From Girardia tigrina (taxonomy: Eukaryota): a DNA stretch of 64,000 nt. The stretch lies in contig MQRK01198362.1 of the NCBI GenBank assembly GCA_001938485.1, positions 1-64,000 of the forward strand. Direction: 5' to 3'. The position numbers and the translations under genes were made by a program. Every line of letters begins with the position of its first letter. Position 1 is the first letter of the stretch. The notes under the pieces were generated by a model, which saw nothing but the letters and a program-made list of their open reading frames with translations, was not told where the DNA came from and searched no databases. Below are positions 1,063 through 62,690 of this stretch, piece by piece.

Positions 1063-1401
1063 TTCTGTCTATAGATCCAACCAGTTATCATTCACTGACT
1101 CAATTGACTCGAACGACTTATCGGTTTTGCAATAAAATCGTCTTGATGAATGGCCGCGTTAAGGTACACCGTGTAAGTAATTGCGTAACGGGGAGTCACG
1201 TCCAAATACATCTCATCATTTCATTCCGGAATGTTGTTTTCAGTTTTATTTAAATTCTTTCCTACGATTTTCTCGTCGATTTCAATGATGACATATGGAT
1301 CGGGATTCTCGTGAAGCTAAGTAAAGGGTCACACACTCTGTCTCTTTCAAATCATTTAGTTCAATGATCTTAACGGTCACAGAACCGCTAAACTATTTCA
1401 T
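1063..1401 (-). pseudogene. Decayed N-terminal C2 domain of a novel-class protein kinase C (PKC epsilon/eta-like)
   Basis: Minus strand from ATG 1401: MK*FSGSVTVKIIELNDLKETEC / PDPYVIIEIDEKIVGKNLNKTENNIPE*NDEMYLDV...VYLNAAIHQDDFIA / SFESIESVNDNWLDL*. Colinear with PKC-epsilon MVVFNGLLKIKICEA..DPY..PAWHDEF..DDFVAN..WIDLE. Contains 3 stops and 2 frameshifts. Confidence 0.82.
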
Positions 1402-2889
1402 TTTGAAACGATGTTTATCAATAGAAATTACGATTAAACAAATTAAGTCATTCAAAGCATATTTTTAAATATCATTCAATTAAATAAATCGCTCAATTAC
1501 AAAAAAATAACAAAAATTAATTTTATCATTGTTATTTTCGATTTCAATAATCAGTAATCAATTATTGATTTTTACTTGCTGAGATTTCAGATCGATATTT
1601 TGTGAAGTATTTGGATAGCCGCATGAACTTTTTGTTATAAATAAGAATATGTGATTTTAATATACAAGTATATTTTTTCAATATAGATATAATTTAATTT
1701 TTTGGTCACCACAGTGTATATTTGACGTTGTATTTTTGGGTTTCCCCTTGTGTCAAACTACATACCTTACTGTGCAGTTAAGCGCACTGCTTCTACTAAC
1801 TGAATTTATCAGTGTATTAGTCTACTGTCAACTACTCGTATATTATTTTTTATGTTTTTATGTAAACACTTTGTTATTTTTTGCTTAATGACTGATATTT
1901 TTTTATTGTTTTGGCTTTCTTGTAGTTCTTACTATTTTGGTGTGATGCTTTATGTATTGTTTGTGTATTTTTTATATTTTTTTCATCATATTTTTATTTT
2001 TTTATTTACAAGTAGTAAAAAAACAATATATCCATAATTGAGGTGCAACTAACAATTTGAAAAAGAAATATGAGAGCAATAATAATGATTATGTTGAAAT
2101 ATAGATGGGAAATTAAACGTAGGAAAAGAATTGCGGTGTAAATAAAATACATTTAATTTTATTCACGGAAAGAGAATTAAAAAAATACTCCAATAAATAT
2201 CAATCTTCCAGTCAGCAACCTCAATTCGGTTGAAACCCCCATATGTTTTGAGATACTATGCTCTGTGATGATATATGTTAAACGTTGGATGGTTGCCGAT
2301 ACGTATAAATCGTTTAGTGAGCAAATCAAGTGCGACTGATAATTGTGGTGGCATAATTACAATATTATTTCATAATAATATTGTTGCCACAATTTGCATT
2401 TGGATTTAAAAATTCAAATGCAAATAAATAAATCAATCACAAATAAAAGATTTAATGAAAATTTTATTTAAATACGAAGCTATTTGTTGACTCTAAATCA
2501 CTGACGATATATCTGCATCATAATACAATTGACTATATTTTATAATTTCTACCGCTAAGGGGACTTTAATTGAAGTTTTTTTGTTGATAATATATATAGG
2601 TTGAGTTAATTGTTCACTCATCATCATTTATCTTTTACATCTTTGTAATACAAACTAATCTTATCAAACGGTAAAAGGTTATACCAAGTTTGGTCAATTT
2701 AGTCATACCATCGTCACAAACGATTACATTTTTAATTAAATTGTTTTAGAAATACTGATTTCAATTACCTCTTGTATTGACCTGGTCAGGAATTGAAGTC
2801 AATATTTCTACAATCAGCATCCGTGTGTAAACGAAATTGATTGATGTGCTATGACACTAATTATTGGGTGTTTTGTTCAGAAAAAAAAC

Positions 2890-4207
2890 ATCATGGGAAG
2901 AAAAGTAGATTTCTCCTCATAAAAAGGAACAAATTACTATCTTGATGGAATAAGAACAAAGTAATCGTATCTTCCAATCATCCTATGAAATCAGCACAGG
3001 TACTGTGCAGAATTTGTGTAGCAACTTGGATGTCGGGTTTCATTATCATCAAAGCGAAAAAAAAGAAGACATCAGCATAAGAAAACAGAATATTACAAAG
3101 AAATCTATGGCTAGAGCCTTTGGCCACTGTCAAAAAACTGAAGACGAAATGTGAAGATCACGGTGTTATTATTCATATCAGAATTGCCGTCACCAGTTTA
3201 ATCAAATAGACTGCAGATCGGTGGAGCCTCGACGTGTTTCAACATTGAAAGCCAAGATAAAGCAAAGACACCTAAAATTTTCTAAAGATCATCAGTAAAT
3301 GACAGTGGATGATAGTTAAAACGTTTTGTTTATTCTATTATTTTTGTCAATTTTACAGCCTAAACCGTTTTAGAACTACAGGGATTTTTTAATCCTAAAA
3401 GATTTCAACACAATACTGAATATTTTAAATGCGTTTACCAGGGGATTTATTCAGCCCATTCTATCTTTTACTATCTTAATCACGCTTTGATCATTCTGCC
3501 GTCACACTACATACATCCTGTCGCATATGTTATCAACAGATTGTTCCTCCATTCAGGGACTTATTATTCCACTTTCTGATGTTTGTAGAAAAAAGTTGTC
3601 TTGAAACGGTTAAAGAGTGAATTATTCTCATTTTTCAAATTCAGCAAGTGGCTTTCAGGGATGAGTTAACGTTTGAGTGCAGTCTGGTATCAGCCAAATT
3701 TATGGTAGCGGTCCAACTAGCCTCATACTGTCACTCAACGTGTTAAGTCCATTCAGAAAATGAGGGTTACAGGAATTTTCAGTTATCACGACTTCAATTG
3801 CAGAAAGGAATATGATTGTACCCAGTATTTGGATATTATGAGCAGAAGAATAATGCTGCAGCTGCAGGAATGATTTAGAACAACGATGATGTTTTCATGC
3901 AGGATAGAGCGTCTTGTTACACTGTAAAGGTAATCACCGCATGGTTCAGAGAGAGGTACTGTTCTGCCTTACTATGGCCGGGCTATAAAACCCCAGAGAA
4001 CTCTTTGAGCATTATCAAGAGGCTTATTTTTACGGAGTCAGTGTCAAACAAGTAGCAATATATATTTTAAACTTCTTTTTGATATGACCTTCTTTGCAAA
4101 CAAAAATATCTGGATTTTTTATTGTGATGGCAATTTCTGTATTTGCAAATAAAACATTTAATTTCTTCATTTGAAATGGCGCAAAATTTTGTATTTTGTT
4201 TCTACTG
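2890..4207 (+). mobile_element. Decayed Tc1-like transposon
   Basis: MGRKVD start, FMQD..SCYT and WPG remnants, many stops; the end ...tactg looks like a TIR. Boundaries approximate. Confidence 0.6.
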
Positions 4208-4950: not shown

Positions 4951-5619
4951 NNNNNNNNNNNNNNNNNNNNNNNNNNNNNNNNNNNNNNNNNNNNNNNNNN
5001 NNNNNNNNNNNNNNNNNNNNNNNNNNNNNNNNNNNNNNNNNNNNNNNNNNNNNNNNNNNNNNNNNNNNNNNNNNNNNNNNNNNNNNNNNNNNNNNNNNNN
5101 NNNNNNNNNNNNNNNNNNNNNNNNNNNNNNNNNNNNNNNNNNNNNNNNNNNNNNNNNNNNNNNNNNNNNNNNNNNNNNNNNNNNNNNNNNNNNNNNNNNN
5201 NNNNNNNNNNNNNNNNNNNNNNNNNNNNNNNNNNNNNNNNNNNNNNNNNNNNNNNNNNNNNNNNNNNNNNNNNNNNNNNNNNNNNNNNNNNNNNNNNNNN
5301 NNNNNNNNNNNNNNNNNNNNNNNNNNNNNNNNNNNNNNNNNNNNNNNNNNNNNNNNNNNNNNNNNNNNNNNNNNNNNNNNNNNNNNNNNNNNNNNNNNNN
5401 NNNNNNNNNNNNNNNNNNNNNNNNNNNNNNNNNNNNNNNNNNNNNNNAAGGAGCACCATCATGCATGAATATTTTTGTTCCTCGAATATTCATCATGGGT
5501 TGTAGCCTTTCTTTCAACACATTTAAATAATTTTCACTTCTCATGGTGGTGTTTGGAGGCAAGAATGTGCACTTAATGTGTAGAAAATGTGAAAGTCAAC
5601 AGACTTTTGTCCACAGCTG
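4951..5619 (-). mobile_element. Internally deleted Tc1 element inside a (TA)n tract, mostly in a gap
   Basis: TIR-like CAGCTGTGGACAAAAGT next to TA; minus-strand MRSENYLNVLKERL...IFMHDGAP (DD34E second Asp region). Left boundary lies in the gap. Confidence 0.7.
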
Positions 5620-6239
5620 TATATATATATATATAATTATTTATTCAATTTTCAAATATTTTCAATATTTCAAATAATGTACCATACGGTAATTAGCTTT
5701 ATATAATAAAAAACAATTTTTTTGAAGCTTGAGGCTCCTCTTTCGGTCATTCCTGGGAATGAGGAACTATTTCGCCTCATTCCCCGGAATGGCTCCGAAT
5801 TTTGGGAGCCTATGGTTTTAGAAAAAAATATAACAAAATATATAAATAAAATTAAACACAAAAAAATAACTCACCAGTATTTTTTTAAAAATGAAAATTT
5901 GGGGAAATATTTCCCTTTTTGTTAAATCGGTCTATCAGCCGACTAATGGAAATTGGCATTAGGCAATTGGTCAGTAGGCCCATTAAGAAATTGAATGCAT
6001 TAATGGTATAATTTGATTGCGACCTTAATGGCCTTTTGATTTATGGAATATTTTAAAAAATTTTAATTAAAGAATTTTTTTAATTAAAATATTTTATATA
6101 TATTAAGCTCTAGTATAAATAGAGCAATATTGTTATATATAAAAAAGGAGAAAAGAAAACAAAAAAGCCTAAAAGCAACAGAAATAGAAACATAATAAAC
6201 TGAACTATTCCTGTATAATTGTAAATACGCTGCATTACA

Positions 6240-6445
6240 TAAAAGAGCTGGACGACCATCCACAGATTCAAAGCCATTCAGACTGATATATCGGCATTTT
6301 ACAGCGAAAATTGAATTACAAACTCTAGGTGGTCGGATTTCAAGAAGTGTTGTATCTTCTGTCAAGAATAAACAAACAGTGATTGAATATTTATGCAAAG
6401 ATTGTGACTCCCAATTTTGTATTGTTTAATTTATTACACTCAATT
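6240..6445 (+). mobile_element. piggyBac-like transposase C-terminal Cys-rich remnant
   Basis: GRPS..RL..RHF...EYLCKDCDSQFC resembles the piggyBac terminal zinc-binding domain. Confidence 0.5.
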
Positions 6446-6657
6446 GAATTATTAGTAATATCTTTTACTTTTTTTCTGTAATAAAACTATAAATTTTCCA
6501 AAATTCCAAAAATTGTGAAAACTTTTTTCACTTTGAAGTACTGGTTTCCGGATCGAGCTGTGGAGACCAGCACTTTTTCAATGTGCGGGAAATTTTCGCT
6601 CGGAGGGACGAATCAACTGGTCTAGTGCCGACCAGAATTTGATTGGACCCAGCCGGT

Positions 6658-8376
6658 GGGCCTCCCATCTCTTTCAATGGTATTGAGCCTAAGGCTCTTT
6701 AGAGGGTCCACCCAAACTAAAGTCCTTAAGGGCCCCCCGATAGGCCTCCTACGGGGTCAGAGTCCTTCTGCCTGCGAGCGATCGGTTTTCCAGTTGCAAA
6801 AGACCAGCCATGGAATTTGGTGCCATGGCCATACATACCTTTGGTGGTTACGGTGGACGCGTAACATCCTCTGAATGGGCGGAAATGTCCTTTTGCTTTT
6901 GCATAATTGGCTGGCAATCGGTATTGTCGGTGCGGCGATTCTTCACGAGTGTATGTAGTGTTGTCTTCTGTCTGGATCCTCGGCGTGCCCATAGTTGCTN
7001 NNNNNNNNNNNNNNNNNNNNNNNNNNNNNNNNNNNNNNNNNNNNNNNNNNNNNNNNNNNNNNNNNNNNNNNNNNNNNNNNNNNNNNNNNNNNNNNNNNNN
7101 NNNNNNNNNNNNNNNNNNNNNNNNNNNNNNNNNNNNNNNNNNNNNNNNNNNNNNNNNNNNNNNNNNNNNNNNNNNNNNNNNNNNNNNNNNNNNNNNNNNN
7201 NNNNNNNNNNNNNNNNNNNNNNNNNNNNNNNNNNNNNNNNNNNNNNNNNNNNNNNNNNNNNNNNNNNNNNNNNNNNNNNNNNNNNNNNNNNNNNNNNNNN
7301 NNNNNNNNNNNNNNNNNNNNNNNNNNNNNNNNNNNNNNNNNNNNNNNNNNNNNNNNNNNNNNNNNNNNNNNNNNNNNNNNNNNNNNNNNNNNNNNNNNNN
7401 NNNNNNNNNNNNNNNNNNNNNNNNNNNNNNNNNNNNNNNNNNNNNNNNNNNNNNNNNNNNNNNNNNNNNNNNNNNNNNNNNNNNNNNNNNNNNNNNNNNN
7501 NNNNNNNNNNNNNNNNNNNNNNNNNNNNNNNNNNNNNNNNNNNNNNNNNNNNNNNNNNNNNNNNNNNNNNNNNNNNNNNNNNNNNNNNNNNNNNNNNNNN
7601 NNNNNNNNNNNNNNNNNNNNNNNNNNNNNNNNNNNNNNNNNNNNNNNNNNNNNNNNNNNNNNNNNNNNNNNNNNNNNNNNNNNNNNNNNNNNNNNNNNNN
7701 NNNNNNNNNNNNNNNNNNNNNNNNNNNNNNNNNNNNNNNNNNNNNNNNNNNNNNNNNNNNNNNNNNNNNNNNNNNNNNNNNNNNNNNNNNNNNNNNNNNN
7801 NNNNNNNNNNNNNNNNNNNNNNNNNNNNNNNNNNNNNNNNNNNNNNNNNNNNNNNNNNNNNNNNNNNNNNNNNNNNNNNNNNNNNNNNNNNNNNNNNNNN
7901 NNNNNNNNNNNNNNNNNNNNNNNNNNNNNNNNNNNNNNNNNNNNNNNNNNNNNNNNNNNNNNNNNNNNNNNNNNNNNNNNNNNNNNNNNNNNNNNNNNTT
8001 GTTGTTCTTCAGCACTGGTCTAATCGTTCTCAGCTTGATTGTTCCTTTCTTGATCCTGGTTTTGATATCTGTACCTGAGCCACCTCTGCTCTCGATTATT
8101 GAGACCAGGTAGCAGAAGTCGTCCATCCACTCGATCCCGGCATTCAGCTCATCTCTTGCCGTGATATATCTGGCTCCATTGAGATTGAGTATCTTCGTCT
8201 TCCCAGTGTTTATTTTGAGTCCCATTCTTTTAAACGCAGTGTTCAGACATGTTAAGTTCTTCTCGATGTTCCCGTAGTCTTCGTCCAGCAGGCACAAGTC
8301 ATCTGCATACGCCAATCTATTCACAAGTAGTTCTACTCCATTGTGAAGCACTTTCACTCCTCCTGATAGCCCATCC
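6658..8376 (-). mobile_element. 5'-truncated RTE-clade LINE with 15-bp TSD
   Basis: RT motif LAYADD, GLKINTGKTK, FCYL.SII...DIKTRIKK. TSD TTGGACCCAGCCGGT at 6643-6657 and 8377-8391. 3' end shared with the copy at 61262. Confidence 0.92.
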
Positions 8377-9643
8377 TTGGACCCAGCCGGTACCGGTCGG
8401 AATACCGTTAAATAACGGTCTCTCGTCCAAATCACCTCGGCTTCCCGAACCGCGTTCCCGTCTCTGTGAACGCCGATATCGCTCTGTTCTTCGACACGCG
8501 GCCCAAGTGTGTGGTCAGTGAGGTTGTGGGGATTCGCTAAAATTGTGTGAGGCGATGACGCATGTGATCTGACCGACTGAGGCCGCTTCCGCACAGTGTG
8601 GTTCGAATAGTTTATTCATTATAACTTCAAAAAGACAAAAAATAACGATTTAAAACATATTTCACCGAAAACTACGATTTGAATTTTTAACATATTTTTT
8701 TAATTAGTTCGATAAAACGTATTGTTTTTATAATTTTCACGAGCCCCACAAATTTTTTATAATTACTATTTTTTACTGTTCAAGCATAAATTATCAAATA
8801 ATCAATGTTAAATAAACATATTTGAGCAGAAACAAATTAGGGACTCAACAGGTTACCAAATTTTTACTTTAGTTTTCGTAATCTTTTAAATACGCATATC
8901 GTCCATTCGACGATAAAATGCAAATTTCTTGATTAGCAGTGTGATAAGTGATTAGCAATAAGTGATTTTACTAGATTCTGTATCATGGTAGTCGCTTATA
9001 AACGACTCACTTGGCTTATTTATCAATTATATTTTAGTGTTTTATACCCATTGCTATTTATTTTATTTACAAGTCTGTAAATGAAAAAAAAGTATTTCGT
9101 AGTTAAAGGGTTATAGGATGAGAAAATTGAAGTCTTGATAAAAATGATGAATTGTTCAAATGAACAAAGAACATTTAAATTCAAATGATTCTATTTTTTG
9201 TTTAATTATTTTTCTTTAAATTTTTATTTAATTATTTTAATTTTTTTAATCCTTTTTATTTAATTTTTTTAATCTATTTTCTTATTTATTAATTATAACA
9301 TATCCATTTTATATAAAAAAAGCGAAGCAACCGGCTAAATAAACTTTTCAGAGATTTTCATTCTAAAGATCTTCGATTTAATGTCGATTTAAAATTTGTC
9401 TTGAGAGGAGGATTGGTAAGGAATATAAATAATGATAATACAAATATAATAATTATTTTAATTAAAATCTACTAATTCTGAAAATCCCGAATGTATGAGT
9501 TACATTCAGTTTGAGAATTTTTTGCTCTGGTAGATAACGGTTAAACCTTCGAGATTAATTAACAAAAAAATAATTGGCTCTATAGTTTATTATTATTATT
9601 ATTATTTATATGGAAATTAATTCTAAGTAATGACTGGTAATAG

Positions 9644-12414: not shown

Positions 12415-13215
12415 TTTAACTAGCATTTTAGGAGCATTTTAAACTATTTTAGTTGTAAAAGTCATTTTCCATTAAAGCCATATACCCTTAATCCATTTAG
12501 GTCTTTACATTGTAAAAATTAGAAGCGTCTCAGCTGTCGCCCTAAAAATTTTTTTATAAATTTCCATGCCTCGCTCCGTACAACTCTAAGTCGCTAGGAA
12601 TGAGTGACAATATTTTTCGATAAATTTTATTTAAATTTAAGTTTGGGAATTTTTTGATCGGTTTTTTCAAAATATTTTTTAAGATTTTCTTAATTTTCTA
12701 TTAATTTTTTTATCGAAAAGATTTTCTTTCTTTAAAAAATATATAAAGCGAACATTTTTGACTTTAAAACTTTTGGATTTGACTTTTACATTCTCTCAAT
12801 TGAATTATTCGAATGCTTTATAAAAATTTTTTTGGTCGATTTTTGCATGGAAATGCCATGAGATGTTAATGCGAATATTTATTTTTCAATTCCAAAATCA
12901 TAAATTTTCCAGAAATAATTTTAAAGTGTAGTGAATTGCAATTACAAAACCTTAATTCAAAATCGAATCTACTATTAGAAATAACTAGTTTAGTAAAGCA
13001 AAAATAGAATCAGCAACTGAAATTTAAAAATACTCAAGATAATCATAAATTTAATGTCGGATTTCGATTTTGAATTACAAATGCTAAAATGAATTATAAT
13101 TTACGAATTAAAAAGAAACTGTGATAAAATTCATTAATTGCAAAAATTTAACAATAATTAATTAAAATCGAAAAGAATTAAAAATATAACTTTGTTTAAA
13201 AAAGAAGAATTTTAA

Positions 13216-13392
13216 CACATTGAATGCTGAGTACGAGATATCTCGTACTTCAATATTCATTAGTTAGACGCTAAGTACGAGATATCTCGTACGCGCATGA
13301 GATATGCCTGCCGCGCGGCAGTAAACTTTTTTGTCCCACGCGTAGCGCGCGTAGCAGACGTTCGGTGCATGATGTCAACAGCAGTCAATGTG
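13216..13392. mobile_element. piggyBac-type MITE (TTAA TSD)
   Basis: TTAA at 13212-13215 and 13393-13396; TIR CACATTGA(A/C)TGCTG; internal palindromes. Confidence 0.8.
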
Positions 13393-14208
13393 TTAAAGTT
13401 TGGTTTATTAAATGGCAATTGATGAAAGACTAAAAGCGTGGTTTTGCAATGATTATGAAATTGTCAATCCGATTCTCTGTGTTAAAAATGAAACTTCTCA
13501 TCGATTTATTTGAATCTATACTTTCGAAATTGATATGTCAGTAAATTTTGTTGGATTAAAAGTCACTTAAGGGATTTTTGGGCAAGATGGTCGCCCGTTG
13601 TGTTTTCGTCGAGAGCCATCTCAATCCAGTAAGCTTTTATGCGACAGTTATAGCTCTTGTCTCCATTCTCGACAGGACCGATCGATTGAAAAGCGTACGG
13701 ATCATCCCGCTCACGTGTTCCAATACCTGCAGCAGCTGCGCGATTCTTTAGTCTCTAAGAGCCTCCACATACCTATCACTTAATCAGGATCCCTTATACT
13801 CACTAAAATAAATTGTCAACTGTTGATTAAAACGGCGTCTTTAGAGCATATTAAACTGGTAACCCTCCCGGTTACCAAATAAGCTTCCAATTTGAACGAA
13901 TAATTTTTGATTTACCTATGTCGATTAACTGAAATTGTGTTCAAATGGCTTTTTATCTTCAAAGATACCAACAATTTTTAGGAATAGTTGAGGACAGGTT
14001 TCACAATGCTAAAATCCGATCTAATAAAAAATCATTTAACAAATTTTCAAGTTTAGAAGGTCTAATTACTGCCAAACGAAAATGCGATAAAACAGAATCT
14101 AATAGTCTTTTTATAATTTTTAGATATTGTACGTTTATACTCATGAATTGTTTTAAATATTTTATACAGTTTTCTTTATGTAGTTCTTACCAAAGAAACA
14201 TTTTGTAG

Positions 14209-14456: not shown

Positions 14457-14503
14457 GTTTGATATAATTTGCATCAAAACGAAAGAAACTGGATTGATTT
14501 TAG

Positions 14504-18276: not shown

Positions 18277-20860
18277 TCACCCATTGTAATATGCTATGCC
18301 AAAAGGCATCCGTTTAAAACAAAACTGTCCTGTCTTGGTGGAGAACGCCGTTTTTTCCTGTGATTCTTTATCCAATTCTACTTGATAGTATGCATTCCAT
18401 AAGTCTATTGTAATAAAATATTTGGTACCGTGTAATCTGTCCATCATTTCAGCTATATTCGGCATGGAGAAAGCTTGGCGCTTAGTGATTCAATTTAACT
18501 GTCTAAAATCCAGACACAATCTGATTTCGCCCTTGTCCTTTTTCCACACGCATACTATTGTGTGTTCCATTCAGAATTACATGGTTTTATTATTCTGTTT
18601 TTCTTCAAATTTTTTATAGCTTCTTCTAGTTTGTCTTCCAGATGTACCGGCTGTCTTCTCGGTTTTATGTTTATGGGTACCCCTGTTGTCTCTATTCGGT
18701 GTTGAAGCAAGTTTGTACGACCTATATCCCAATCGTTTGCCATAAATACTGCTCCGTATTCGTGAATTATTTTCTCTAGAGTTTTATCGTTCTTTGTATC
18801 TATCACTTTTAATGCCTCTTGAACGCGATTCTCGTTGGTGATTGCTTTTCCAAATTTAGCTTCGATTTCATATATGTTGGTTCTCTTTGTTTCCTGATAA
18901 TTCTGCTCTTTCCATTGTAATTCTATTCCGAACACTTTCATCAATGGTATTCCTCCGATCATCTCTGGTCTCAAATTTTTCACTATTACAAATCTTATTT
19001 TTTCGGCTTTATTTCCAATCTTTACTATCGTTTCTATTTCTCCTCCGACATCCATTTGTAGTCCATTTGCTGCGGTCAATCTCTGATTTGTCTGTTCCAT
19101 CCTTATGTTATTTAAGTTTTTTAATATTCCTTCCATCGTAACGTTCAAAGCTGCACCCGTATCCAGTAAACATTCGATTTTATGTTTTCTATTCTAACTT
19201 TTACACTCGGTCGACCCTGTAATTTATCGTATGTAATTGGAAAATTTTCACAATTATTAATTATTAGCAATTCTCTATCACCAAATGATTCTTTTTTTAT
19301 AAATTTCATGACTTTCTGACTTACTTCTGGTTCCTGGTGGGGTTTTGGTTCACTTTGATCTTTTTGATTATTTTTCTTAATTTTAGCATTTATATTATTG
19401 ATATCAACTTTATTATTTATTTTATTTATATAATTTATATTACTACTACTATATATATATAATTTATATGATCTGGTTCATACACATGAAAACTTACTCC
19501 AGTGCCAAGATCGGTTCTTCGTCGTCTCGGCACGATTCGTTTTTTTCTATATGTTCTCGCTCTCCTCCGTATTCTTCATTCTCCATCATCGCGATCTGTC
19601 TTCCGCTTTCGAACACTCTTTTTTAGTCGTCTGAGTTCCGGTTTCCTGAGCTTTTCGTTTGTGCATCTGAGAATTGTCGGCTATATCCTTGGGTTCTCTT
19701 TTGATAATCAGTTCTTCCTTGATATCGTTTATTCAAATTCGTGTAACATTCCTCAGCTCTATGTCCTGGATTATTACATCTTCCGCATCTTACCTTCCTG
19801 CATTCCCGTCGGACATGACCTTCCTTCCAAGCTTCCAAGAACACCTACAACAAACGACATGATCAAAATTTCTTTACCTGGATATTTTTTTCATAGTCCG
19901 GTATGAGATTAGCATATTTTATCTGATTCTGACCAAGTCTTAGGCTGAGACTGTTGTTGGAGTCAAAGGGGCATTTGACTTCCAAGAAAATGACTTGTTC
20001 AGGTAGTTGAAGGATGAAGTCCGGTCTGAGTCTACTACAGATGACCTTTTTATCCACAAATTCTCGCTCCATTCTGTAAATGTGACATGTGATTTTCCTT
20101 TCTCTTTTACATTCGCTCCGTCTATGCCTTGTTTCATTGCAGTTCCAGCATGATATATAGTTTTGCCCTGGATGTCGTCTAACAAAAGTATCTCCTTTCT
20201 TCGTTATGCTTCCTGTCGCTGATCCTCTTTTTACCACGTCCTTGTATGACGCTCTCATTGCATGTACTGGCCTTTCCATTTCCCGGACTTCATCCATTTT
20301 TTGGTGACATTTTTTACTTCTTTTATTTCTTTTACCTCTCTAAACTTGATCTCCTTCTTCACATCGCTGTACTTCTACCCATGAATTAGAAGATTCTTTT
20401 CAATTTCTTCTTCCAACCAATTATGTTTTGCTAATTTTGCTGCAAGTTTCTTTGCTTTCGCAAAGTATTCTTCCGCTGATTCATTCGTTCTTTTGAAATT
20501 TACAGCCTCCATCAGAGAGCTTTTATTTTGAAAAGCTTCTCGTAACCGAGCTTCATATCCTTTTGTCTCGACCGATACATTCTCGTAGACAGATACAAGT
20601 TCATGAGAAAGCAATCCAATTATCAAAATCTCTTGTATGCTTTCTGGTGTTTTAGCCACCTTAAAATACCTTGAGCATGCTGCTATAAATGTTTCAATAT
20701 TGTCTTCTTTCCATTAATTTTCCGGAAGAAGTCTCGCAATCAACTGATCCGAGTTGCTGGCTATGGTCGACATATTAGGTTCGTGATTAAAATTGGAAGT
20801 CATAATTTTGTAAACTTTATTTCAACTACAATTTTCATTATTGAAACAAATTTGTGAGGA
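18277..20860 (-). mobile_element. Truncated Ty3/Gypsy LTR retrotransposon (gag with CCHC knuckles, protease, partial RT)
   Basis: Gag CWNCNETRHRRSEC and CGRCNNPGHRAEEC; protease LLDTGA; RT RLCLDFRQLN, IDLWNAYYQV, RMPFGI. Truncated before YxDD. Confidence 0.9.
19827..20070 (-). mobile_element. Internal fragment of an RLE-type (R2/NeSL-like) non-LTR retrotransposon endonuclease inserted into gag
   Basis: RPDFILQ..QVIFLEVKCPFD...QIKY..L...FVVGVLGS is a PD-(D/E)xK restriction-like endonuclease signature; it splits ITCHI..|..KEGHVRREC. Confidence 0.8.
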
Positions 20861-21859
20861 ACAATATTTTAATTATATAATCCATATCTCAAAATTCTAA
20901 ATATAAATAATAATATCGATAAATATATAAATATGTTATTTTATTCAATTTTGTATAAATTTAGATCTTTAAAAATATTTTAAAAATTCAAGTCCTAAAT
21001 ATTTTTCTTTGGTTTTAAATCATTCGATTATAAATTATTTCTTTTTAATAAAAACCTTTTATTTGCTTTTAATAAAAATTGCAAAAATAACTTACAAATT
21101 TAAAATACAATTCACAAATTTGAAATACAAAAATATTTAGCAATATTTAAATTTATTATTATTTAATAGAGATTCATTAATTATAAAATTTTTAATATAT
21201 ATATATATATNNNNNNNNNNNNNNNNNNNNNNNNNNNNNNNNNNNNNNNNNNNNNNNNNNATTTAAAATACAATTCACAAATTTGAAATACAAAAATATT
21301 TAGCAATATTTAAATTTATTATTATTTAATAGAGATTCATTAATTATAAAATTTTTAATATATATATATATATATATATCTTTATTTTATCAATTATTTA
21401 GCGAATTTTAATTTGCAGAATTTCCAACTGCCTTTTAACTTTAAATTATCATTTTTTATTACATCTCTGACAACAAAAATTTCAACAAAAAATTCTTTCG
21501 AATAACTCTAAAATAAATGCAAAACAATTAAAATTCAAGTATTTATGAAATTAACTTTTTATAATTAATTAAGATATTTTTTTACTTATAACTGTTTAAA
21601 AACTTTTGATTTTAAATATTTTCTTATTTTAGAGATTAATTATTTTCAAAAATTTAAAGAATGAGCCTGTTCTTTTTTTAAAGAATTTAAAAAGATTTTT
21701 ATTTTAAAGAATTATTTCATTTTAATTAATCGAACATTATTTTTAATTTATTTAAAATATAAATATGATTTTTAAAAATATCAAAAATTTAAAGTTCATG
21801 AAAAGGAACCCCAACAGTGGTGATGAGCTTATTTGAGATAACAGGAATTCTTGTAATAT

Positions 21860-40993: not shown

Positions 40994-41482
40994 TGTGAGG
41001 GATAATTGTGAATGTTGTAAGTTTGTTGTTTGTATGCTGTTTAGATTTGTGACTCTCCTACTCAGATGGGATTGATATGTTATTTGATTAATTATTTGAA
41101 TCTAATGAAATTAATTTAATGATATTAAATTAAAGTACTAATTAATTAAAGTTTGATAATTATGAATTTTAATAATATTTTCAGTAAACGATTTTAACTT
41201 ATTAAATTTAATATATTTTAAAAATTAATGCTTATTTAAAAAATTGCATAATATCTTTTTATCCAATAAAATTAAGAGAAATTAAAATGTAATATTAAAA
41301 TTTCCCATTCATTGATTTTTTTTCATATTTGAATACGTAATCAAAAACTATATCAATCAAAGAAAGATGACCTCTGAAAATTGTTGTGAAGAATCTGTTT
41401 GTGTTGTAAATAAATATTTGCATTCAAATTGTGATGCTGTTAATACTCGTTTGCGAAAAAAATGATAATTCTATTAGATAAC

Positions 41483-41611
41483 CGTGAAATGCGTGCTGAG
41501 CGTCCGCTGGAGCCAGAACGCGTCGATGTCGTTCGGGTTGAGTTCGTCGCTGTTCGTGACCGCCTTCTGGTAAAACCCGGATGACGGGAGAACGGTGCTC
41601 GTTCCGGGAAC
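41483..41611 (-). pseudogene. SNRNP200: Isolated intact exon of SNRNP200/Brr2 (U5 snRNP helicase, start of PWI-like region), antisense in HEATR5B intron 2
   Basis: cttttcaag acceptor, 43 codons VPGTSTVLPSSGFYQKAVTNSDELNPNDIDAFWLQRTLSTHFT, gttatc donor. Matches Brr2 LHPRDIDAFWLQRQLS. About 60% GC. Confidence 0.78.
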
Positions 41612-44600
41612 CTTGAAAAGATGTCATTATTTCATAGTGTAAAACAGCCTGTTTATCAATACCAAGCGAGTGATAAACACGTTGTTTTAACACCAAATTA
41701 TAAATATACTAAATTAACCGAATCTCCGAATTAGGTGAATTTAGTATCTAATTTATAACACAACGTTTAATCAACAATCTATATATTTTTTTACTCAAAC
41801 AATAAATAATAAAAATTAATCAATATTGTCAAAACTTTAACCAGAAAAATGGGAACTATCGGATCAACTAATCTGAATCCTCAAATATTCACTGATTAAC
41901 CAAAATTGTATACAGAGGCTCTGGTTCGGATTTTTTTAAATAAAATCTTCTATATGTATTTGGTATTGTTGACGATAAATAATAATATAATAGCACCGCT
42001 AACTGTCGAAAAAAATGATAATTCTGGTAGATAACGTAAAAATAATGATTCAGTCGGATAAGGTAGAGCACAATAAAATTCATAGCATAAATTAGTGCTT
42101 TTTAATGATTAATTTTTTAATTCAAATCTAAATATCATATTTCTATAGTATACAATTTTGTAATTAAATTTCAGTTGTTGATTAAAATAAATTTCGTGAT
42201 TGAAAGAAACTTCTCCAGATTTACAGATCGAAATCTTTTGAAGAATGTCTTAGATGAGTTCCTTTTTTCTCATAAATCGTTTTGCAATTTCTTTTTTTCT
42301 CTAAAATATCATAAATTACAATGAGTGTTTTTGTAAAAAAACAATTTTCGAACTCAATAAGAATTATACATTTGTTTCTTTTTTTACTTTGAAATTATTT
42401 TTTGACCTGACGTAAATGAATTGATTTACTTACAAAAAATGACTATTATTAAATAATAATTAAATCTTTTATACATAAAAATTATGCATAAAATGCTGGC
42501 AATAAAAATAATAAGAATAATAAAAATAACAAAAAGCAGTACGAGCAAAGAAAAATATCACATACGAAGGCGGATAATAGAGATAAAATAAATAAATAAA
42601 TACATGCTACCTCAGCAATCATAAGCACTCAAAAATCACATATGGCCGAGCATTCACAAACGAAAAACGATCGCATCATAATATTAACTAAAGTTGATAT
42701 ATTACACATAGGTATTCTTAACATCAAATTTTGATATAAAATCAATACATTCAAAACTATTCAGAAATGAATAACTTTTTTGAAATTAAAGGTTTCAACA
42801 TGGTAACTAGATATTTTGCAACCAGATCTTTACGTTCTAATCCTCACAGTAATAAATATTACTCCTTCGAATTACTCCAATGTAAACCATATGAATTTAT
42901 TTTTTTTTATAAGATTTTATTTTTTTGTTGAAACATCTGAATCTCTCTCGTTTGCATTAAACTCTAAACTCCAAAGTATGGTGATGTGAAAATTGTTTAT
43001 TCTACTGATTGATATTCACGAAACTTTGTAGCGTGCGACTCTATTATAATTATTTATTTCTATGTTTTTGGTAAAGGAGAGGAAAGAATGTGCTTAAATT
43101 GTACTACGCATATTTTAAAATTGTATGCATTTAAATTAATTAATAATTTAGTAAATAACAAATAGTTACTTTTGTAAATTTTTGCTCTCTGTATAAACCT
43201 ATTCTTTGCCGAACGTATTTAGCAAAGGAAAAATTTTAAATAGACAAAAACACAAAGTCTAACTAAATTACAAAACGTAAAAATTTCCCAAATAATAATT
43301 ATTTAAAATAATATTTATTGATAAAAATGTATTTCAATAGTTTTACCATTATTACCAGACCACTTTTTTCTGCTCATTTATAAAACTAGTAATACAATTT
43401 TTTTTCTATATCCATTCTTTATGCGGGCAGAACTCAACTTGGCGAACAGAATTTCTTGTTATCTTTTTGTTCAAGGGAAAATTACTTTTACATTTTTAAT
43501 CAATTTATTATGTTATTAGTAACTATTAAAATCTTTTGTAGAAGCGAAAATTTCATACTAAAAATAGTTTTCTATATATAGAAAAAAAATTTGTATCACT
43601 AGTTTTAAAAATGTTAAAAATGTTAAGATCAGATTCATTAATTCAAGAAAAACTTATAACTGACTCCCATGTTTACTTGTTTCATCTTTCATTAGAGCAT
43701 TTACCTGATTACCTTGTAAAATTAAGGATCTTAAACTATCTATACTTTCAACTGACGGACACACGTCCTCACATAAAATCTCAAACGTTTAGGAAACCAA
43801 ACATTTTCTATATAAAATTTAGTTCATGAAAATCCTACCTGTAAAAGGAAATTTTGTATGACCTCCGAAATTCTTCGGATTCTGAAAAGGTCAAATTACT
43901 TATAAGACATTGATGTCGGTACTTGATTATTCCTATTGAATAACAATATGTTGAGAGTAGCAATTTACTGATTGATCATAGGTGGTTGATGTAAATATTA
44001 CAGAAATTAGTAGAAAAATGGAAAATGACAGAAATTGTATATGAGAATCGAACATTTCATTCTCATTTTTTAGTAGGAATATTGAGAAAAATTTCCATTG
44101 ATTTTTTATTTTATCATTTTTAATAACTCTATAACACAGAGTTATCAGAAAAGACATAATAATCCGAGCAAGTCAATTGAAAATATCAAAGAAGCGCATC
44201 TTGATTTGGTTTCGTATCTTTTATAGAAATCTAAATCTAGTTTTCAATTTGTATTATTTAGAGAAATTTCAATTTATGATTTCTCTGCCGGGAATAAAAA
44301 ATATTATTATTCTGAAAAATAGAAACTAATTTAAATTTTTGTGGAATTGATATTCAGATAGCCGGTTTTCTGGAGCCGGAGAGAAAACCGGTACATCCCT
44401 AGTTATGATCAAAATAAATGTATAAGTAAAGGTGAAAATAATTAGGAATGTAAAAATGTAAAAAAAGCAAATTACAAAATCGAAGTTAGTAGAAATACGG
44501 TTGAAGTAGAAAAAATCAACAAAATTGAAATAATAATCTAATTTTAGTTTCTATTTATTCTCTGGAATAACATTTCTTGACCAAATAACTAGATTCGCTT

Positions 44601-45446
44601 TGATTATTTACATATATTATTTATATCTCTTATGTATAAAACTTTGTGAGGAATATTTTGAATTGTGTGTTGATATTGTACATGTTACATGTTGATTCGG
44701 ATTGAGCCTCTCCTACACAGATGAATGATTTGTATTTTCTTTGATTCTTACTAATTAAAAATAATTTAATTTAATTTTAAAGTAAAAAAGATTTAAAATA
44801 ATTTTTGAATGTATTATTTATTTTTTAATGTAATTTAAAATTTTAATATATTAATTTAATATGTTCTTTTTTAAAAAAATGTTTAGATTTAATTTTAACC
44901 AATTAGACTCTTTATAATTAATAATTTTTATTAACAGATTTTCATTTATTGAAAATAATTAGTATGAACTCAGAAATATATTGATCAAGAGAGATGTCAA
45001 ATAGTGAATGCGCTTGTGATATTAATAAATGTTGTAAAACTCATATTGATGTTGTTAATAGTATTGTTTATTTTAAATATCACTGTTTTTAAGAGACTTC
45101 ATTGTTCTTGTCATATAATTATTCTTTTTAATTATGAATATTTTGTTTAATATTAAATAAGGTGATCTTTTAATCCGTTTATGAAAATACATTACCTAGA
45201 AAAATATAAATAAATTATCGTACAGAAGGATATGTATGAATAATTAAATTTAAATCCAATTTCAAAGATTATTTTACAATAAATTGAACTATTTAAATTT
45301 TTATTAAATTTGTCTCTTTATTCGCATTTTCTTATTTCCAACAATCTAATCTTCTTTTATCCACGAAAAATTTATTTTTATTCAATTTACTAAATATAAA
45401 CTGAAACGCATAATATTTATATTAAGGAATGTAAGAATAAAATAAG

Positions 45447-46125
45447 AAATAATATCTAAACAATTTTATAAAAAAAATTTTAAAAACAAATTAAATTTTA
45501 GTAGTCAAATTTAATATAAAAAGTTACTATATCAGAAAAGATTTTTTTAAATAATGGTAAATTATAGACGTATTTTGCTGGAAAAGCTTGATATGCCAAA
45601 AATATGGTAAATTTCGGAGGGTGGTAAATAAAGAGGTTTGACTGTATGATGTCAAATTTGAAACTATAGATAAAAGGTATTTTCAGTGGCATAAAATAGT
45701 TTCAGTTTTCAGTGACATAAAACTATAGTTTCGAAGAGGAAACTTTTGATGGTAAAAATGAGGATAAAAGAATACGAAACACTTATTTGTATATAAGCAT
45801 TTTTTTGAAATTATTTTTGTAAAATTATCAAAATTGATTCTTGGAAAAATATTTATTTTCTTTAAAAATGTTGTAATGACTATTATTACCTATATTATTA
45901 ATAATGCCAAGAACATTAATCAAATAATGGTAGAGGAAAGCTAAATTTCAAGAAATAAAACAGTAAAAGACAAATGAAAAATTAATAATAATAAAATAAA
46001 TGTTAAAATTAACAACGAAAATGTTATATATAAAAATATTAAAAATATACTGTGCTAGAAAACATTTATCATAAAAAATAGAAATTTGTCATAATTAAAT
46101 GAAATAGAACAAGTTCTAAATAATA
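45447..46125 (-). repeat. Inverted, highly similar copy of 58170-58814 (start of HEATR5B intron 6)
   Basis: Direct comparison; the ORF-track peptides at 45498-45692(-) and 58514-58741(+) are nearly identical. Confidence 0.9.
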
Positions 46126-46159
46126 TATTTCTTAATATATTTAATATATTTCTTATATT

Positions 46160-57541: not shown

Positions 57542-57756
57542 GAAAATGACGTTTAAATAATCAAAAAGTTTCTTAATAATTAAGACTGTTGCTAATGAAA
57601 TTAACGTTTATCATTCTTTTATTCTGTAAAATAATAAGCGATACTTTCGTAATTCATATAGTGTGAATTTTCACCGTCACAATATATTTGAAAAGTTAAT
57701 ATAAGCAGAAATAAAAAAATATTTTTTTATGGTGTATTGAACTTATTATTTTTTAG

Positions 57757-58159: not shown

Positions 58160-59527
58160 GTAATTTTTATATTTATTTAGAACTTGTTCTATTTTATTTA
58201 ATTATGTCAAATTTCTATTTTTTATGATAAATGTTTTCTAGCACAAAATATTTTTAATATTTTTATATATTAAATTTTCGTTGTTAATTTTAACATTTAT
58301 TTTATTATTATTAGTTTTTCATTTGTCTTTTACTGTTATATTTCTTGAAATTTAGCTGTCCTCTATCATTATTTGATTAATGGTCTTGGCATTATTAATA
58401 ATGTAGGTAATAATAGTCATTACAACATTTTAAAAGAAAATAAATATTTTTCCAAGAATCAATTTTGATAATTTTACAAAAATAATTTCAAAAAAATGCT
58501 TATATACAAATAAGTGTTTCGTATTTTTTACCCTCATTTTTACCATCAAAAGTTTCCTCTTCGAAACTATAGGTTTATGTCACTGAAAATACCTTTCATC
58601 TATAGTTTCAAATTTGACATCATACAGTCAAACCTCTTTATTTACCACCCTCCGAAATTTACCATATTTTTGCATATCAAGCTTTTCCAGCAAAATACCT
58701 CTATAATTTACCATTATTTAATAAAATCTTTTCTGATATAGTAACTTTTTATATTAAATTTGATTACTAAAATTTAATTTGTTTTTTTTATCAAATTGTT
58801 TAGATATTATTTCTAAAGGTTTCCACAAAAAAGAAGTTCAATTTATCTTAATTTATCAACAATTTATATTAATTTTAGAATACAAAAAATATTGAAACGT
58901 TTTTATTTGGCGAACAAATGTCCCAAAAATTTCAAAAAATAACTGATTATTTTAAGTAAAACTTATTTGGATTTTTCCTTTTTTTGTACTCTTATAATAT
59001 ATTATTAAGTTAAAAATAAAGATGATATTAATTTTTGATAATTGTCATTTCACAAACTGGCATATACACCAAAATATATTGAAATTATACTTTTACCAAA
59101 CAATTCTATCTATATTGCATAACCAATTATACCTCTATCATTTACCACCCTCCCAAACTTACCATTTTTTTCTAATCCCGGAAATTGGCAAATTACAGAG
59201 AGTTGACTGTATGTAGAATTAAGAATTATCTTTCAGAATTTACACGTTAGAAATTTTCATATCCGTTTGTCATCAATTATTATCAAATGGACAAAATCTC
59301 TTTTCGAACATTCGAAACTACAGTCATTATCTATTATCCCTCGACTTTGTATTAACTCAATTTACTTGAGTCATTTAATATTTGTACTTCGGCTGAATCA
59401 TATTTAATGAAACAAAATTAGAAGAATCATTGATTTAAAATAATAGAAAAGGAAATTGTTTTAATTGGATTTTCATTTTCTTATCATTTTTACAGATTTT
59501 CAATTTAATTAATTAAATTTTTTTCAG

Positions 59528-59802: not shown

Positions 59803-61261
59803 GTGAGTGAAAACAAATATAGTATGTTCAATGCCAATTTGTAACCCGAATATTACGTTTTGAAATATTAAAGCCAGATTTATATTATAAATCATGTTGT
59901 CTGTAATTAATAATTCCGAGATTATTTTCCTTTTCTCCTGATGTGTGGAATCTGTGGGAACTGTTGTTGATAAACATTGCCATTAACAGATGATCTGCTA
60001 CCATTTTGATCAAATATTTTTTCTGATGATTCCTGTTTTGTTTTGCATTATATTCATTTCTTTACTTTTTTATTTGAGATTTAACGAGAGAGAAGGACAT
60101 AAGAATATTTGTTATACATATTTGACTTCATATTTTGGTTTAATAATTGCAATTATACTCTCGGAAATGAGAGATACTCTTATACCACAGATACATTTTT
60201 CTAAGTACAACATCTGTTTAGGGTTGTTACTAACTTTCTGTCACATTTTTCCAGCTATTTCTATCTCCTATGTAATATAAGTCTGAATTGTCTTCATCTC
60301 TTAAGCAAAAGATTAATAGTTTATAAAACTAATAATATAAAATAGACATTTTACAGTTTTCTTTCAAACTATGTTTTGAAAACTTTTTTTGCTTTGATAA
60401 TACCTTGTATTAAGAACACCAACATGGCTTTTCAAACTTTTATTTTCATTACAATCAGAATTGTCTTTTGGACAACTCTCAGCAAAACTCTCGTCATTCG
60501 ACATCGTTCTAAATTGATAATTTTTTATTAATGTTTGTTAATAAACAATTATTCGAACAAATTTTTCATTATTTTCTGATTTTATTTTTAAAGTTCAAAT
60601 TTTGTAGTTTTATTATTAATTTTTATTTACATATTAATTTTATTTAAAAATTATTTTATGTAAAGAAAGAACATTTAATCAATTCAAAACTTAGTTAAAC
60701 TATTTATTTTATTTAAATTTTAATATGAAGATTTTATATTTTTAATGTTTTTAAATATCTTATGTTATACTTTAAAATATAAATTATACTCGAATAATTA
60801 TCTATCTTGAACATCCAAAATATCAATTTTCCATCGGGCAGCTGTGTTCTTTTAAACGAGGTAACACCAGTCTCAGTGTTTTCTTTATTTTATTTATTTA
60901 TTTATTTTATCTCTATTATCCGCCTTCGTATGTGATATTTTTCTTTTGCTCGTACTGCTTTTTGTTATTTTTATTATTCTTTGAATTTTCCATCTGGGTG
61001 GGAGAAACACATTTCCAAATACTAAACTCAACATACAAAATTCAACAAACCAATTTCAACATACCAAATTTAAAATATTCCTCACACCTTGTAAATCTTA
61101 TATTTTATATTTTGAGACATCAAATCCAAAATCAGCACATTTAATTCTCTCATAATTTTAAACTCGCATTTATCAATCTAAAACACCTTGGTACGAATGC
61201 TCCAAAGATGTAATGTTGGTTGAATATACTTGGGATATCTTTATCAATCCTAAAAATTCAC

Positions 61262-62690
61262 TGTGAGCCTCCCATCTCTTTCAATGGTATTGAGCCTAAG
61301 GCTCTTTAGAGGGTCCACCCAAACTAAAGTCCTTAATGGCCCCCCGATAGGCCTCCTAGGGGGTCAGTGGCCTTCCACCTCTGAGCAGTCGGTTTGCCAG
61401 TTATAAACGACCAGCCATGGAACTTGGTACCATGGCCATATATACCTCTGGCTGTTACGGTGGACGCGTAACAGCCGCGAAATGGTCACTTGAACTCTCC
61501 TCTTGCTGTCGAGTAGTCGGCTGGCAGTCCGTATTGTAGGTGCGGATCTTCTTCGGTATCGTCATTTGTCTGTATCCTCGGCATACTCACAGTTGCGTCC
61601 GGTAACTGAGAGTTGGATTGATTTGATTACGGCTCTTCCTCGTTCTCTCTTTCCAAGTTCTCTTCTCTCTGGACGTTGGATGTTGGTGGTTCTTGGTGAT
61701 TCTTCTGAATGTGAATCCTTAGGAATCCAGCAGTTTGGTATTCCTTCGGGCAATGTTGGCATTGGTAGTTTCCTTTCTTCTGACGTGGCTGGGCTTTCTT
61801 CTCTCTTTGTTTTCGCGGGATTGGGCCTGCTCCATCGTGATCTCTTCTGAGATGCCTGTTCAATTCCTTCACTTCTGCATACTGTCTATGACAGGCATCC
61901 ATCGGGCAGCTGTGTTCTTTTAAACGAGGTAACACCAGTCTCAGTGTTTTCTTTATTTTATTTATTTATTTATTTATTTATTTTATCTCTATTATCCGCC
62001 TTCGTATGTGATATTTTTCTTTTGCTCGTACTGCTTTTTGTTATTTTTATTATTCTTTGAATTCTTCTCAGTCGGAATATCTTCTCGATCTTTCCATCCA
62101 TCTTCAGTAGATTCTCCTGCAAAATGTCTCTCTTAAATTCCCCGAAGCTGTACTCGGCTCCAAAGAGCCAGTGAGTGTCCACTCTGAGACATTCTACCAG
62201 ATGTTGCTTTCTCCGACCGCTAATCTTCTTCCCTCCGATGAGTTCGCATCCACTGATCTGTTTGACGTTCTCCGGGCAGTCTCCTAAATCGATTTTCACA
62301 TTGTGGATGATTTTTCTCCGCGCAATGATATCCATTGGGCTTTGTAGTCCAATAGATATCTCATCCATCCTGATTCTTTCAGCTTTTGATATCCCCAGAG
62401 TTCGCCGAGTGCACAGATTGTGAAATGCTTTCAGCTTTTTCACGTGTGCTTCGTTTGTTCGTCAGTTTTCACAGCTGTAGTAAACCACCGGGAATACACA
62501 GCTGTTAATTACGTTCTTATTGTTCCGGAGAGACAGCTTGTTGTTCTTCAACACTGGTCTGATCGTTCGTAGTTTCGCTGTTCCTTTCTGAATCCTGGCC
62601 TTGATGTCCGTACCTGATTTCCCCCTGCACTCAATTATCGATCCCAGGTAGCAGAATTCGTCCACCCATTCAATTCCTGCATTCAACTCA
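61262..62690 (-). mobile_element. 5'-truncated RTE-clade LINE with C-terminal C2H2 zinc fingers
   Basis: FCYLGSII...DIKARIQKG; AFHNLCTRRTLGISKAERI; CPMDACHRQY...LNRHLRRDH and CQHCPKEY...LRIHIQKNH. Same family as 6658-8376. Confidence 0.92.

Follow-up and report, generated by a model that had tools for sequence, protein, structure and literature searches.

Repair-mediated duplications have already been described in vertebrates (Pace, Sen, Batzer, Feschotte 2009; PMC2671141). In the cases set out there, as at the locus considered here, copies of a repeat are broken by 50-620 bp of nearby DNA, acceptors are chimeric, and junctions carry microhomology, deletions of 1-15 nt, filler and an occasional target duplication (TSD). 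The density given in that study, 0.08-0.65 per Mb of TE DNA, is not like-for-like with the counts presented below. The single-copy Pack-TIRs that Tan et al. (2021; PMC8277862) describe as products of gap-filling share with the present inserts filler inside transposons, a cis bias, short microhomology and independence of transposition, but the filler in the present case sits in a LINE, in a gypsy gag and in solo-LTR-like units rather than in TIR elements.

A different route to inserted gene sequence passes through RNA. LTR-mediated retrocopies (Tan et al. 2016; PMC5131818) consist, like one insert of this study, of partial spliced mRNA fused to a retroelement by template switching and later amplified as a non-autonomous element, but the mRNA in the examples described there replaces the internal ORF between two LTRs, whereas here it lies inside one TSD-bounded unit. 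Plant gene-capturing TRIMs (Gao et al. 2016; PMC4717578), as characterized in that report, are similarly small, non-coding and multi-copy, with intron-less exon cargo and a 5-bp TSD; their cargo, however, sits between two LTRs, and no two-LTR copy was found here.

Inserted patches in a Girardia tigrina contig

The DNA analysed, hereafter the window, is a 64-kb stretch of Girardia tigrina (contig MQRK01198362.1, positions 1 to 64,000), a short-read scaffold with nine N runs from a fragmented assembly of 255,254 contigs. The original prediction attributed five patches to recurrent capture of copied DNA: a PKC first exon, an RLE fragment in gag, a Brr2 exon, an inverted intron copy and a LINE-internal segment. 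All five were found in the assembly at or near their predicted positions, each at least 677 bp from the nearest assembly gap. Their hosts are introns of glycogen synthase (GYS) and HEATR5, whose exons were mapped by tblastn; the PKC patch is only probably intronic, because the first GYS exons fall beyond the contig. Separately, a false duplication (21098-21210 / 21261-21373) flanks a gap. The features of the window are as follows.

1031-1713, minus strand: solo-LTR-like shell (TGT start, AAAA end, 5-bp TSD) with the spliced 5' end of a novel-PKC mRNA
6531-8615, minus strand: RTE-like LINE fragment spanning a 999-N gap, not a filler patch
12927-13879, plus strand: multi-copy solo-LTR-like element enclosing the GC island 13570-13790
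about 13207-13399: small TIR element nested within 12927-13879
19827-20082, minus strand: 256 bp from the interior of an R2-type retrotransposon (endonuclease region), in gypsy gag
40994-41445, plus strand: high-copy solo-LTR-like element missing its right 5-bp TSD, the left wall of the Brr2 site
41447-41481, plus strand: 35 bp of filler; 27 nt of it are similar to part of element B lying about 0.5 kb downstream
41482-41617, minus strand: 136 bp of coding sequence from within Brr2 (PWI region)
41635-42706, plus strand: low-copy repeat, element B, in which 42514-42605 is the likely donor of 61953-62055
45445-46127, minus strand: inverted copy of 58168-58814 (unique intron and part of a repeat), donor 12 kb off
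58168-58814, plus strand: donor of 45445-46127, the start of HEATR5 intron 6, without exon sequence
60836-60983, plus strand: 148-bp copy of a LINE/element-B composite 1.07 kb downstream, inside a high-copy repeat
61953-62055, minus strand: inverted copy, about 103 bp, of 42514-42605, from which it lies 19.4 kb away; it takes the place of 10-11 bp in a young RTE-like LINE

Two GC-rich islands that had been left without a name belong to repeats: 6531-8615 is of the same RTE-like LINE family as 61263-62691, and 13570-13790 is the interior of the multi-copy element around it. The original interpretation, capture of copied DNA, is partly supported: the listed patches are of mixed origins and not the product of a single process.

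Copies of nearby DNA and pieces from elsewhere

The inverted intron copy was confirmed, 45445-46127 aligning to 58168-58814 with 20 mismatches and 5 gaps in 684 columns, and its unique part was covered by the local donor only among 40 scored candidates. Its right end consists of AT-rich slippage filler beside a 5'-only mariner relic; its interpretation as gap-repair filler inside one mariner was rejected, no mariner 3' end lying on the far side within the window. The LINE-internal segment was likewise borne out, microhomology at both junctions included: 60836-60983 copies 61905-62059, with 6 nt and 4 nt of microhomology (rough chance probabilities 0.003 and 0.03) and a flanking 11-bp target duplication, and its site is empty in 13 of 14 sister loci, with 18 supporting copies in a separate Pace-like screen. 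The insert at 61953-62055, absent from the original list, is bounded by a 10-11 bp deletion, TTTA filler and a 3-nt overlap; it is missing from all 39 other scored LINE contigs, the Pace-like screen adding 14 supporting copies, and the window's own element B ranks best of 20 candidate donors (98%, against 91-94% for the next). A one-base insertion that is not in the element-B donor is common to 61953-62055 and 60836-60983; 61953-62055 is therefore the older, and 60836-60983 was copied across its junction.

Comparison with the vertebrate duplications of Pace et al. (PMC2671141) is close in several respects. Both 60836-60983 and 61953-62055 are inserts of at least 50 bp in a repeat that is continuous elsewhere, and the junctions of the local copies lack poly(A) and show 6 and 4 nt of microhomology with an 11-bp TSD, a 10-11 bp deletion with TTTA, or slippage filler, the first two matching classes in Table 1 of that study, namely microhomology with TSD and deletion with filler. 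The donor of 60836-60983 lies in cis within 5 kb, whereas the other two cis donors, at 12 and 19.4 kb, exceed that study's 5-kb cut-off; the present host, unlike those described there, is an invertebrate, and one insert copies across an earlier one. Because of the empty sister sites, the short deletion or duplication and the microhomology, 60836-60983 and 61953-62055 fit repair-mediated duplication. All three local copies, judged from their sequence, are likely to be nearby DNA pasted in during break repair.

Two further pieces have no donor nearby. The RLE fragment proved to be an internal R2 piece that replaces 10 bp of gypsy gag without a TSD, at a site empty in 5/5 other gypsy copies; no close donor occurs among all 36 assembly candidates, of which the best full-length match reaches 80%, and no cis donor was found. 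The Brr2 piece matches six other places at 91-96%, again with no cis donor found and with no microhomology between its ends and the best donor. It had been described as an exon with both splice sites, retained from a DNA rather than an mRNA donor. The piece is in fact mid-ORF: the apparent splice signals are absent from the best donor, which has no intron there, the frame is open through both patch ends in three matching loci (L026, with 790 codons, L028 and L031), and the ends do not fall at donor exon borders. The PKC copies, for their part, are spliced at two junctions, so that the argument for a DNA donor fails on both counts. None of the three local copies contains a host exon. Brr2 5' pieces are widely scattered: scoring 40 of 128 candidates gave 55 matches. 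Both the R2 piece and the Brr2 piece may plausibly be break-repair filler from a distant donor.

The counts do not show that breaks are patched unusually often in this lineage. Private within-contig pairs less than 5 kb apart number 16 in 872 kb against 0.95 expected, and this excess was rejected as a rate of repair copying: of 18 pairs inspected outside the window, 12 belong to transposons (LTR, TIR or other). Of the three candidates tested there, from five, two are unique local copies; C213949:7991-8655, considered as a local repair copy, proved to be a transposon. The Pace-like screen returned no unique local donor in 171 kb of repeat-covered DNA outside the window's contig.

A repeat carrying the front of a PKC mRNA

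The PKC first exon had been presented as an orphan patch, and membership of each patch in a larger multi-copy transposon had been named as evidence against the whole proposal; 1031-1713 is indeed one copy of a dispersed fixed-end family with a 5-bp TSD. The family comprises dozens of old copies of about 700 bp derived from spliced mRNA, and the cargo of 1031-1713 consists of the 5' UTR and exon 1 of a novel PKC, followed by some 20 nt of its exon 2. Among 27 loci, the 5'-UTR join is present in 20 and the exon 1-exon 2 join in 14, and either intron probe in none. An 87-nt GT..AG stretch of the 5' UTR is missing from the copies, the introns being precisely removed, and in the family the UTR is spliced from a donor site that lies 30 nt farther downstream than the one in two transcript contigs. 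Exon 2 was taken from transcript contigs because it was not found in contig C234170, where an 856-N gap follows exon 1; exon 1 is joined to a match of the family's next 20 nt or so in transcript contigs of 4/4 runs.

The PKC sequence is the cargo of a solo-LTR-like shell, because the same head and tail also bracket at least four other interiors. The shell unit measures 385-850 bp, is TSD-bounded and differs between its two ends; in the two cases in which a cargo was traced to its parent gene, it is a 5' end. A TSD of at least 4/5 is found in 7 of 12 PKC copies, a result reached in 0 of 100,000 permutations with ends hand-placed after the flanks had been viewed; 4 of the 12 score 2/5 or less or are ambiguous. 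In shell copies with other cargos, also with hand-placed ends, the TSD is 4/5 in two of seven, 3/5 in four and absent in one. The parent of a second cargo (L267) gave no homologue, Pfam or convincing Atlas match, and Pfam searches of seven cargo peptides returned nothing for five and a weak, sub-threshold match for one. The head was considered as PKC upstream DNA and rejected, scoring no better than shuffles in 4/4 copies; head-only matches, considered as a cargo-free parent LTR, are truncated copies or carry other cargos.

The shell ends in ACAAAA, neither CA nor AATA. Three two-LTR elements of this genome have a TGT start and 5-bp TSDs, and one of them ends in AATA; the absence of CA lowers the LTR claim without excluding it, because one of three proven LTR pairs also departs from CA. 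Among the loci fetched, no shell copy has PBS, cargo and PPT set between two direct LTRs. PBS-like and PPT-like tracts come after one unit (L266), in place of a TSD and without a clear second LTR, and this PBS/PPT-like tract is unique in the genome. Capture by a Helitron or Pack-TIR was rejected for the shell, given its TGT...AAAA ends, 5-bp TSD, spliced cargo and lack of a visible TIR. On these sequence features the PKC repeat likely spread as an LTR-type retrotransposon.

Origins and meaning of the patches

Assembly error is a very unlikely source of the local copies. The scaffold is built from short reads around nine N runs, false duplications beside gaps occur in it, and 60836-60983 shows zero substitutions against its donor; yet all local copies lie 2.6-11 kb from a gap, their junction overlaps of 3-6 nt would be too short to mislead an assembler, and copies diverge from donors by 20 substitutions and a 26-bp insertion, as in 45445-46127, or by microsatellite length. 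It is also distinctly unlikely that LINE machinery, through target-primed reverse transcription on internal RNA, inserted 60836-60983 and the R2 piece in place of DNA repair. The former does have an 11-bp target duplication and a young LINE copy as its source, and the latter may stem from the RNA of a copy that the assembly lacks, but neither insert has a 3' tail, 60836-60983 was templated by a single locus at a distance of 1.07 kb, a deletion and no TSD mark the R2 site, and microhomology with a TSD is listed among the proximal repair copies tabulated by Pace et al. (PMC2671141).

It is somewhat unlikely that the PKC shell is a SINE-like or LINE-mobilised chimera, in which a short mobile tail is fused to an mRNA 5' end, or that it is a DNA element that acquired cDNA. 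The A-rich 3' end, the lack of a two-LTR copy among those found and the joining of cargo to tail at more than one position suit a chimera; the constant TGT 5' head, common to different cargos and not of PKC gene origin, does not, nor do a TSD length that fits 5 bp and the PBS-like and PPT-like tract that in one copy stands in place of a TSD, and a DNA element would be at odds with the lack of a visible terminal inverted repeat at the shell ends. A single DNA-templated process that explains every patch, and scatters host exons and splice sites at an unusually high rate, is very unlikely. Three local copies within 64 kb, the excess of private pairs, the two unique copies outside the window and the scattered Brr2 5' pieces speak for it; against it stand the spliced, multi-copy PKC sequence, a Brr2 piece without donor splice sites, the transposon identity of 12 of 18 outside pairs and of one more, and the empty 171-kb screen.

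The patches thus probably arose in two ways or more: three were copied from DNA 1-19 kb off through double-strand-break repair, and one is a spliced PKC mRNA within a multi-copy LTR-type repeat. The idea that breaks are patched with copied DNA survives as the best reading of two listed local copies and of 61953-62055, and as a plausible one for the R2 and Brr2 pieces, but not for the PKC patch, which is spliced multi-copy cargo. In the repair route, a resected 3' end would pair with DNA close by over a few matching bases, prime there, copy 100-650 nt and then return, so that a short deletion, some filler or a target duplication stays at the site. For the R2 and Brr2 pieces this route is likely as well, with distant DNA or cDNA as template. 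Family-A polymerase exons are present in the genome, the one tested being nearer pol nu than theta, as are Ku domains; an XRCC4 search gave no match, and its control query likewise matched nowhere. In the retrotransposon route, reverse transcriptase would switch from the LTR end onto a host mRNA, run to near the mRNA 5' end and switch back, placing the cargo inside an LTR unit that would then be amplified and left behind as solo units. Tentatively, the PKC patch may belong to a non-autonomous element of LTR type whose LTR itself holds a slot for cargo. Reverse transcriptase would have jumped repeatedly onto the 5' ends of different host mRNAs, so that one shell spread the fronts of several genes, all with the same tail, in copies numbering from tens to hundreds. 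Such a natural 5'-end trap has no counterpart in the portions of the literature on retrocopies, TRIMs, Pack-TIRs and repair duplications that were compared.

With the repair copies, a process known from vertebrates is extended to a flatworm, and datable junctions become available, among them that of a copy that runs across a previous one. A comparative paper on planarians asks, without settling the matter, whether retrotransposons serve as templates in repair (PMC11410931); the R2 piece within gag would be one candidate. The PKC-type shell matters more than the repair copies. If cargo enters the LTR itself, the shell would be a repeated route by which the 5' ends of mRNAs, start codons included, are scattered, and intron-less gene fronts annotated in this genome may be mobile cargo.

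Local copies in the window

The original prediction attributed the short foreign inserts of the window to a single process in which DNA breaks are patched with sequence from elsewhere, a reading that is partly supported: local copies fit break repair, while the protein kinase C (PKC) unit is spliced and multi-copy, and the splice sites predicted for the Brr2 piece fail. The assembly comprises 1.43 Gb in 255,254 contigs, and the window itself has a GC content of about 28% and nine runs of N. Among named sequences, those closest to one glycogen-synthase exon come from flatworms, which makes a flatworm host probable. All listed patches fall between exons. The relevant features are as follows (gene exons by tblastn).

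1031-1713: 683-bp unit including the PKC patch, 1063-1401
6531-8615: LINE fragment with reverse-transcriptase sequence, sharing about 80% identity with 61263-62691
9659-34267, + strand: glycogen-synthase exons
12927-13879: multi-copy element (43 matches in 40 scored candidates) including 13570-13790
19827-20082: reverse-transcriptase piece in gypsy gag
35967 onward, + strand: HEATR5 exons
41482-41617: Brr2 piece
41635-42706: element B, a low-copy repeat containing 42514-42605
45445-46127: copied in inverted orientation from 58168-58814, where HEATR5 intron 6 begins
60836-60983: insert splitting the high-copy repeat 60408-61086
61263-62691: young RTE-like LINE, with insert 61953-62055

The GC-rich islands 6531-8615 and 13570-13790, previously listed as unidentified patches, are thus ordinary repeats. 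Identical 113-bp copies (21098-21210 and 21261-21373) flank a 50-N gap and are probably a scaffolding artefact.

For 60836-60983, the predicted insert with microhomology at both ends stands, and its donor is now found at 61905-62059. The site is empty at 13 of 14 sister loci, and an 11-bp word flanks the insert on both sides in the window. Insert and donor, 1.07 kb apart, show no substitutions and differ solely by a shorter TTTA run in the insert; the left end overlaps the donor by 6 nt (rough chance 0.003) and the right end by 4 nt (0.03), and the whole segment is absent from every other scored place (40 of 915 candidates). The donor region is itself a composite of the young LINE and 61953-62055, an insert missing from the original list that takes the place of 10-11 bp of the LINE; the LINE's right flank is matched by all 39 other scored contigs, none of which runs through the insert. 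Its top source among all 20 candidates is the window's own 42514-42605, inverted, 19.4 kb away and 98% identical, as against 91-94% for the remaining copies of that repeat. Because a one-base insertion is shared by 61953-62055 and 60836-60983 and absent from 42514-42605, the order of the two events is fixed.

The predicted inverted intron-6 copy was likewise borne out, with 20 mismatches and five gaps over 684 columns relative to its template. It combines unique intron sequence with a portion of a repeat and contains no exon; among 40 scored candidates its unique part is covered by the local donor only. On its left lies unique DNA; on its right are AT filler suggestive of slippage and a mariner relic that retains only the 5' end. 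Judged from sequence, these local copies are likely repair-mediated duplications of the type described, in the portion of the paper available, by Pace et al. (PMC2671141), a process already known; they also match Tan-type gap-filling as outlined in the accessible part of PMC8277862.

Ten long contigs totalling 872 kb, a non-random choice made from earlier matches, contained 29 private within-contig pairs versus 9.5 expected; after subtraction of three gap-flanking and two tandem rows, 16 pairs lay less than 5 kb apart versus 0.95 expected. Of 18 pairs checked outside the window, 12 belonged to transposons (LTR, TIR or other), and six rows at five loci resembled repair copies; of three such loci searched genome-wide, two held and one was a transposon, leaving 2-4 candidates in ~808 kb. 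Of the 54 interruption rows from a screen nearer to that of Pace et al., only the window's two had a unique local donor; across 171 kb of repeat-covered sequence on other contigs there was none. The vertebrate rate, from the portion of PMC2671141 available, is 0.08-0.65 per Mb of TE DNA. Because methods differ from those of Pace et al. and the sample is small, a raised rate of local copies is possible. Ku domains are present in the genome; POLQ was not identified in a genome search.

The two loci that held are as follows. A 134-bp pair on contig C230866 (64777-64910 and 66203-66336), 100% identical and unique in a genome search, reflects either recent repair copying or misassembly. C240151:5072-5381 is a chimeric local copy whose donors are 6189-6364 and 3236-3379; another inverted copy lies at 5385-5477. 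The chimeric copy resembles the chimeric repair duplications in the accessible text of Pace et al.

The Brr2 and gag pieces

The Brr2 piece had been described as an exon with both splice sites. Six further places match it at 91-96% (all seven candidates scored), and in the top match, locus L026, it sits within an open frame of 790 codons encoding Brr2 plug, PWI and DEAD domains. The splice-site claim fails because L026 has no intron there and neither of its flanks matches the window. The right TSD (target site duplication) of a solo-LTR-like unit to the left is missing, element B begins 17 bp to the right, and an adjacent 35-bp filler includes 27 nt similar to DNA 0.5 kb away; these features give the site the look of a lesion that was repaired. 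Because sequences from the 5' part of Brr2 occur in many places (55 matches among the 40 candidates scored, out of 128), L026 is only a candidate donor. Brr2 N-terminal fragments are also repeated inside single contigs (C227163, C219840), many with a common edge near query position 868, and the pattern suggests a separate amplified family with Brr2 5' sequence.

The gag piece replaces 10 bp of gypsy gag without a TSD, by comparison with five of five other gag copies. Its relatives are long reverse-transcriptase elements, which we take to be of R2 type, one of them ending at what is presumably a 28S-like target, and the piece is internal to them at both ends. The window's gag shares 92-94% identity with those other copies, yet the top full-length R2 match (all 36 candidates) reaches only 80%. 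The donor is absent from the assembly or was extrachromosomal, so the template may have been DNA or cDNA. R2-type elements (L061, L066-L070) have many dispersed copies, with a clear 28S-like target end only in L069 among those read.

A repeat unit with messenger RNA cargo

Rather than an orphan insert, the PKC patch belongs to a multi-copy unit with fixed ends. Two unit searches gave 49 matches (40 scored of 325 candidates) and 50 matches (40 of 306), some contigs being duplicates; copies are 69-77% identical to one another and their flanks unrelated. An 87-nt GT..AG stretch in the 5' UTR of the intact gene, on contig C234170, is missing from the copies, in which exon 1 is followed directly by about 20 nt matching exon 2 (putative transcript contigs, 4/4 runs). 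Across 27 PKC loci, the UTR join occurs in 20, the exon 1-exon 2 join in 14 and an intron probe in none. The UTR intron's donor site lies 30 nt further upstream in two putative transcript contigs, and the family's UTR join is present in one contig of a related organism.

The surrounding shell starts with TGT and ends with AAAA; with ends placed by hand, 5-bp TSDs matching at four or more positions flank 7 of 12 copies, versus 3% of mismatched pairs. Three proven two-LTR elements of this genome also start with TGT and have perfect 5-bp TSDs. Repeats of the form TGT...AATA occur at 40994-41445, 44645-45060 and 60408-61086 and at C202454:61144-65862. Some of them have 5-bp TSDs, and in one full two-LTR element an AATA end precedes the PBS; LTR ends other than CA seem common in this genome.

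A search with the shell tail also found non-PKC interiors: seven units with both ends (385-847 bp, four interior classes) and another both-ended copy containing a bromodomain fragment. One cargo class is 80% identical to the front of its parent (5' UTR plus the initial ~50 codons), a frame on contig C202384 (L267) that stays open for at least 175 codons, for which sequence and Pfam searches returned no homologue or domain match. In several classes (L258, L260, L257, L288 and PKC copies) the tail reads as a short HERT..NTK-like peptide that shares the reading frame of the final open segment of the cargo.

A template switch by reverse transcriptase in an LTR-type cycle is inferred to have captured the host mRNA cargo. 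One unit is followed by a PBS-like and a PPT-like tract in place of a TSD, the tract being unique in the genome; no two-LTR shell copy was present among the loci examined. A LINE-driven or DNA-level route is a less likely alternative. On the LTR-type reading, the shell works like LTR-mediated retrocopies (PMC5131818) and gene-capturing TRIMs (PMC4717578), as far as the accessible parts of those papers describe them, but the two-LTR test failed here. A literature search, largely of abstracts and without supplements, returned no description of multiple mRNA 5' ends captured within one LTR-like unit, and it is the shell that constitutes the main source of interest among the patches of the window.
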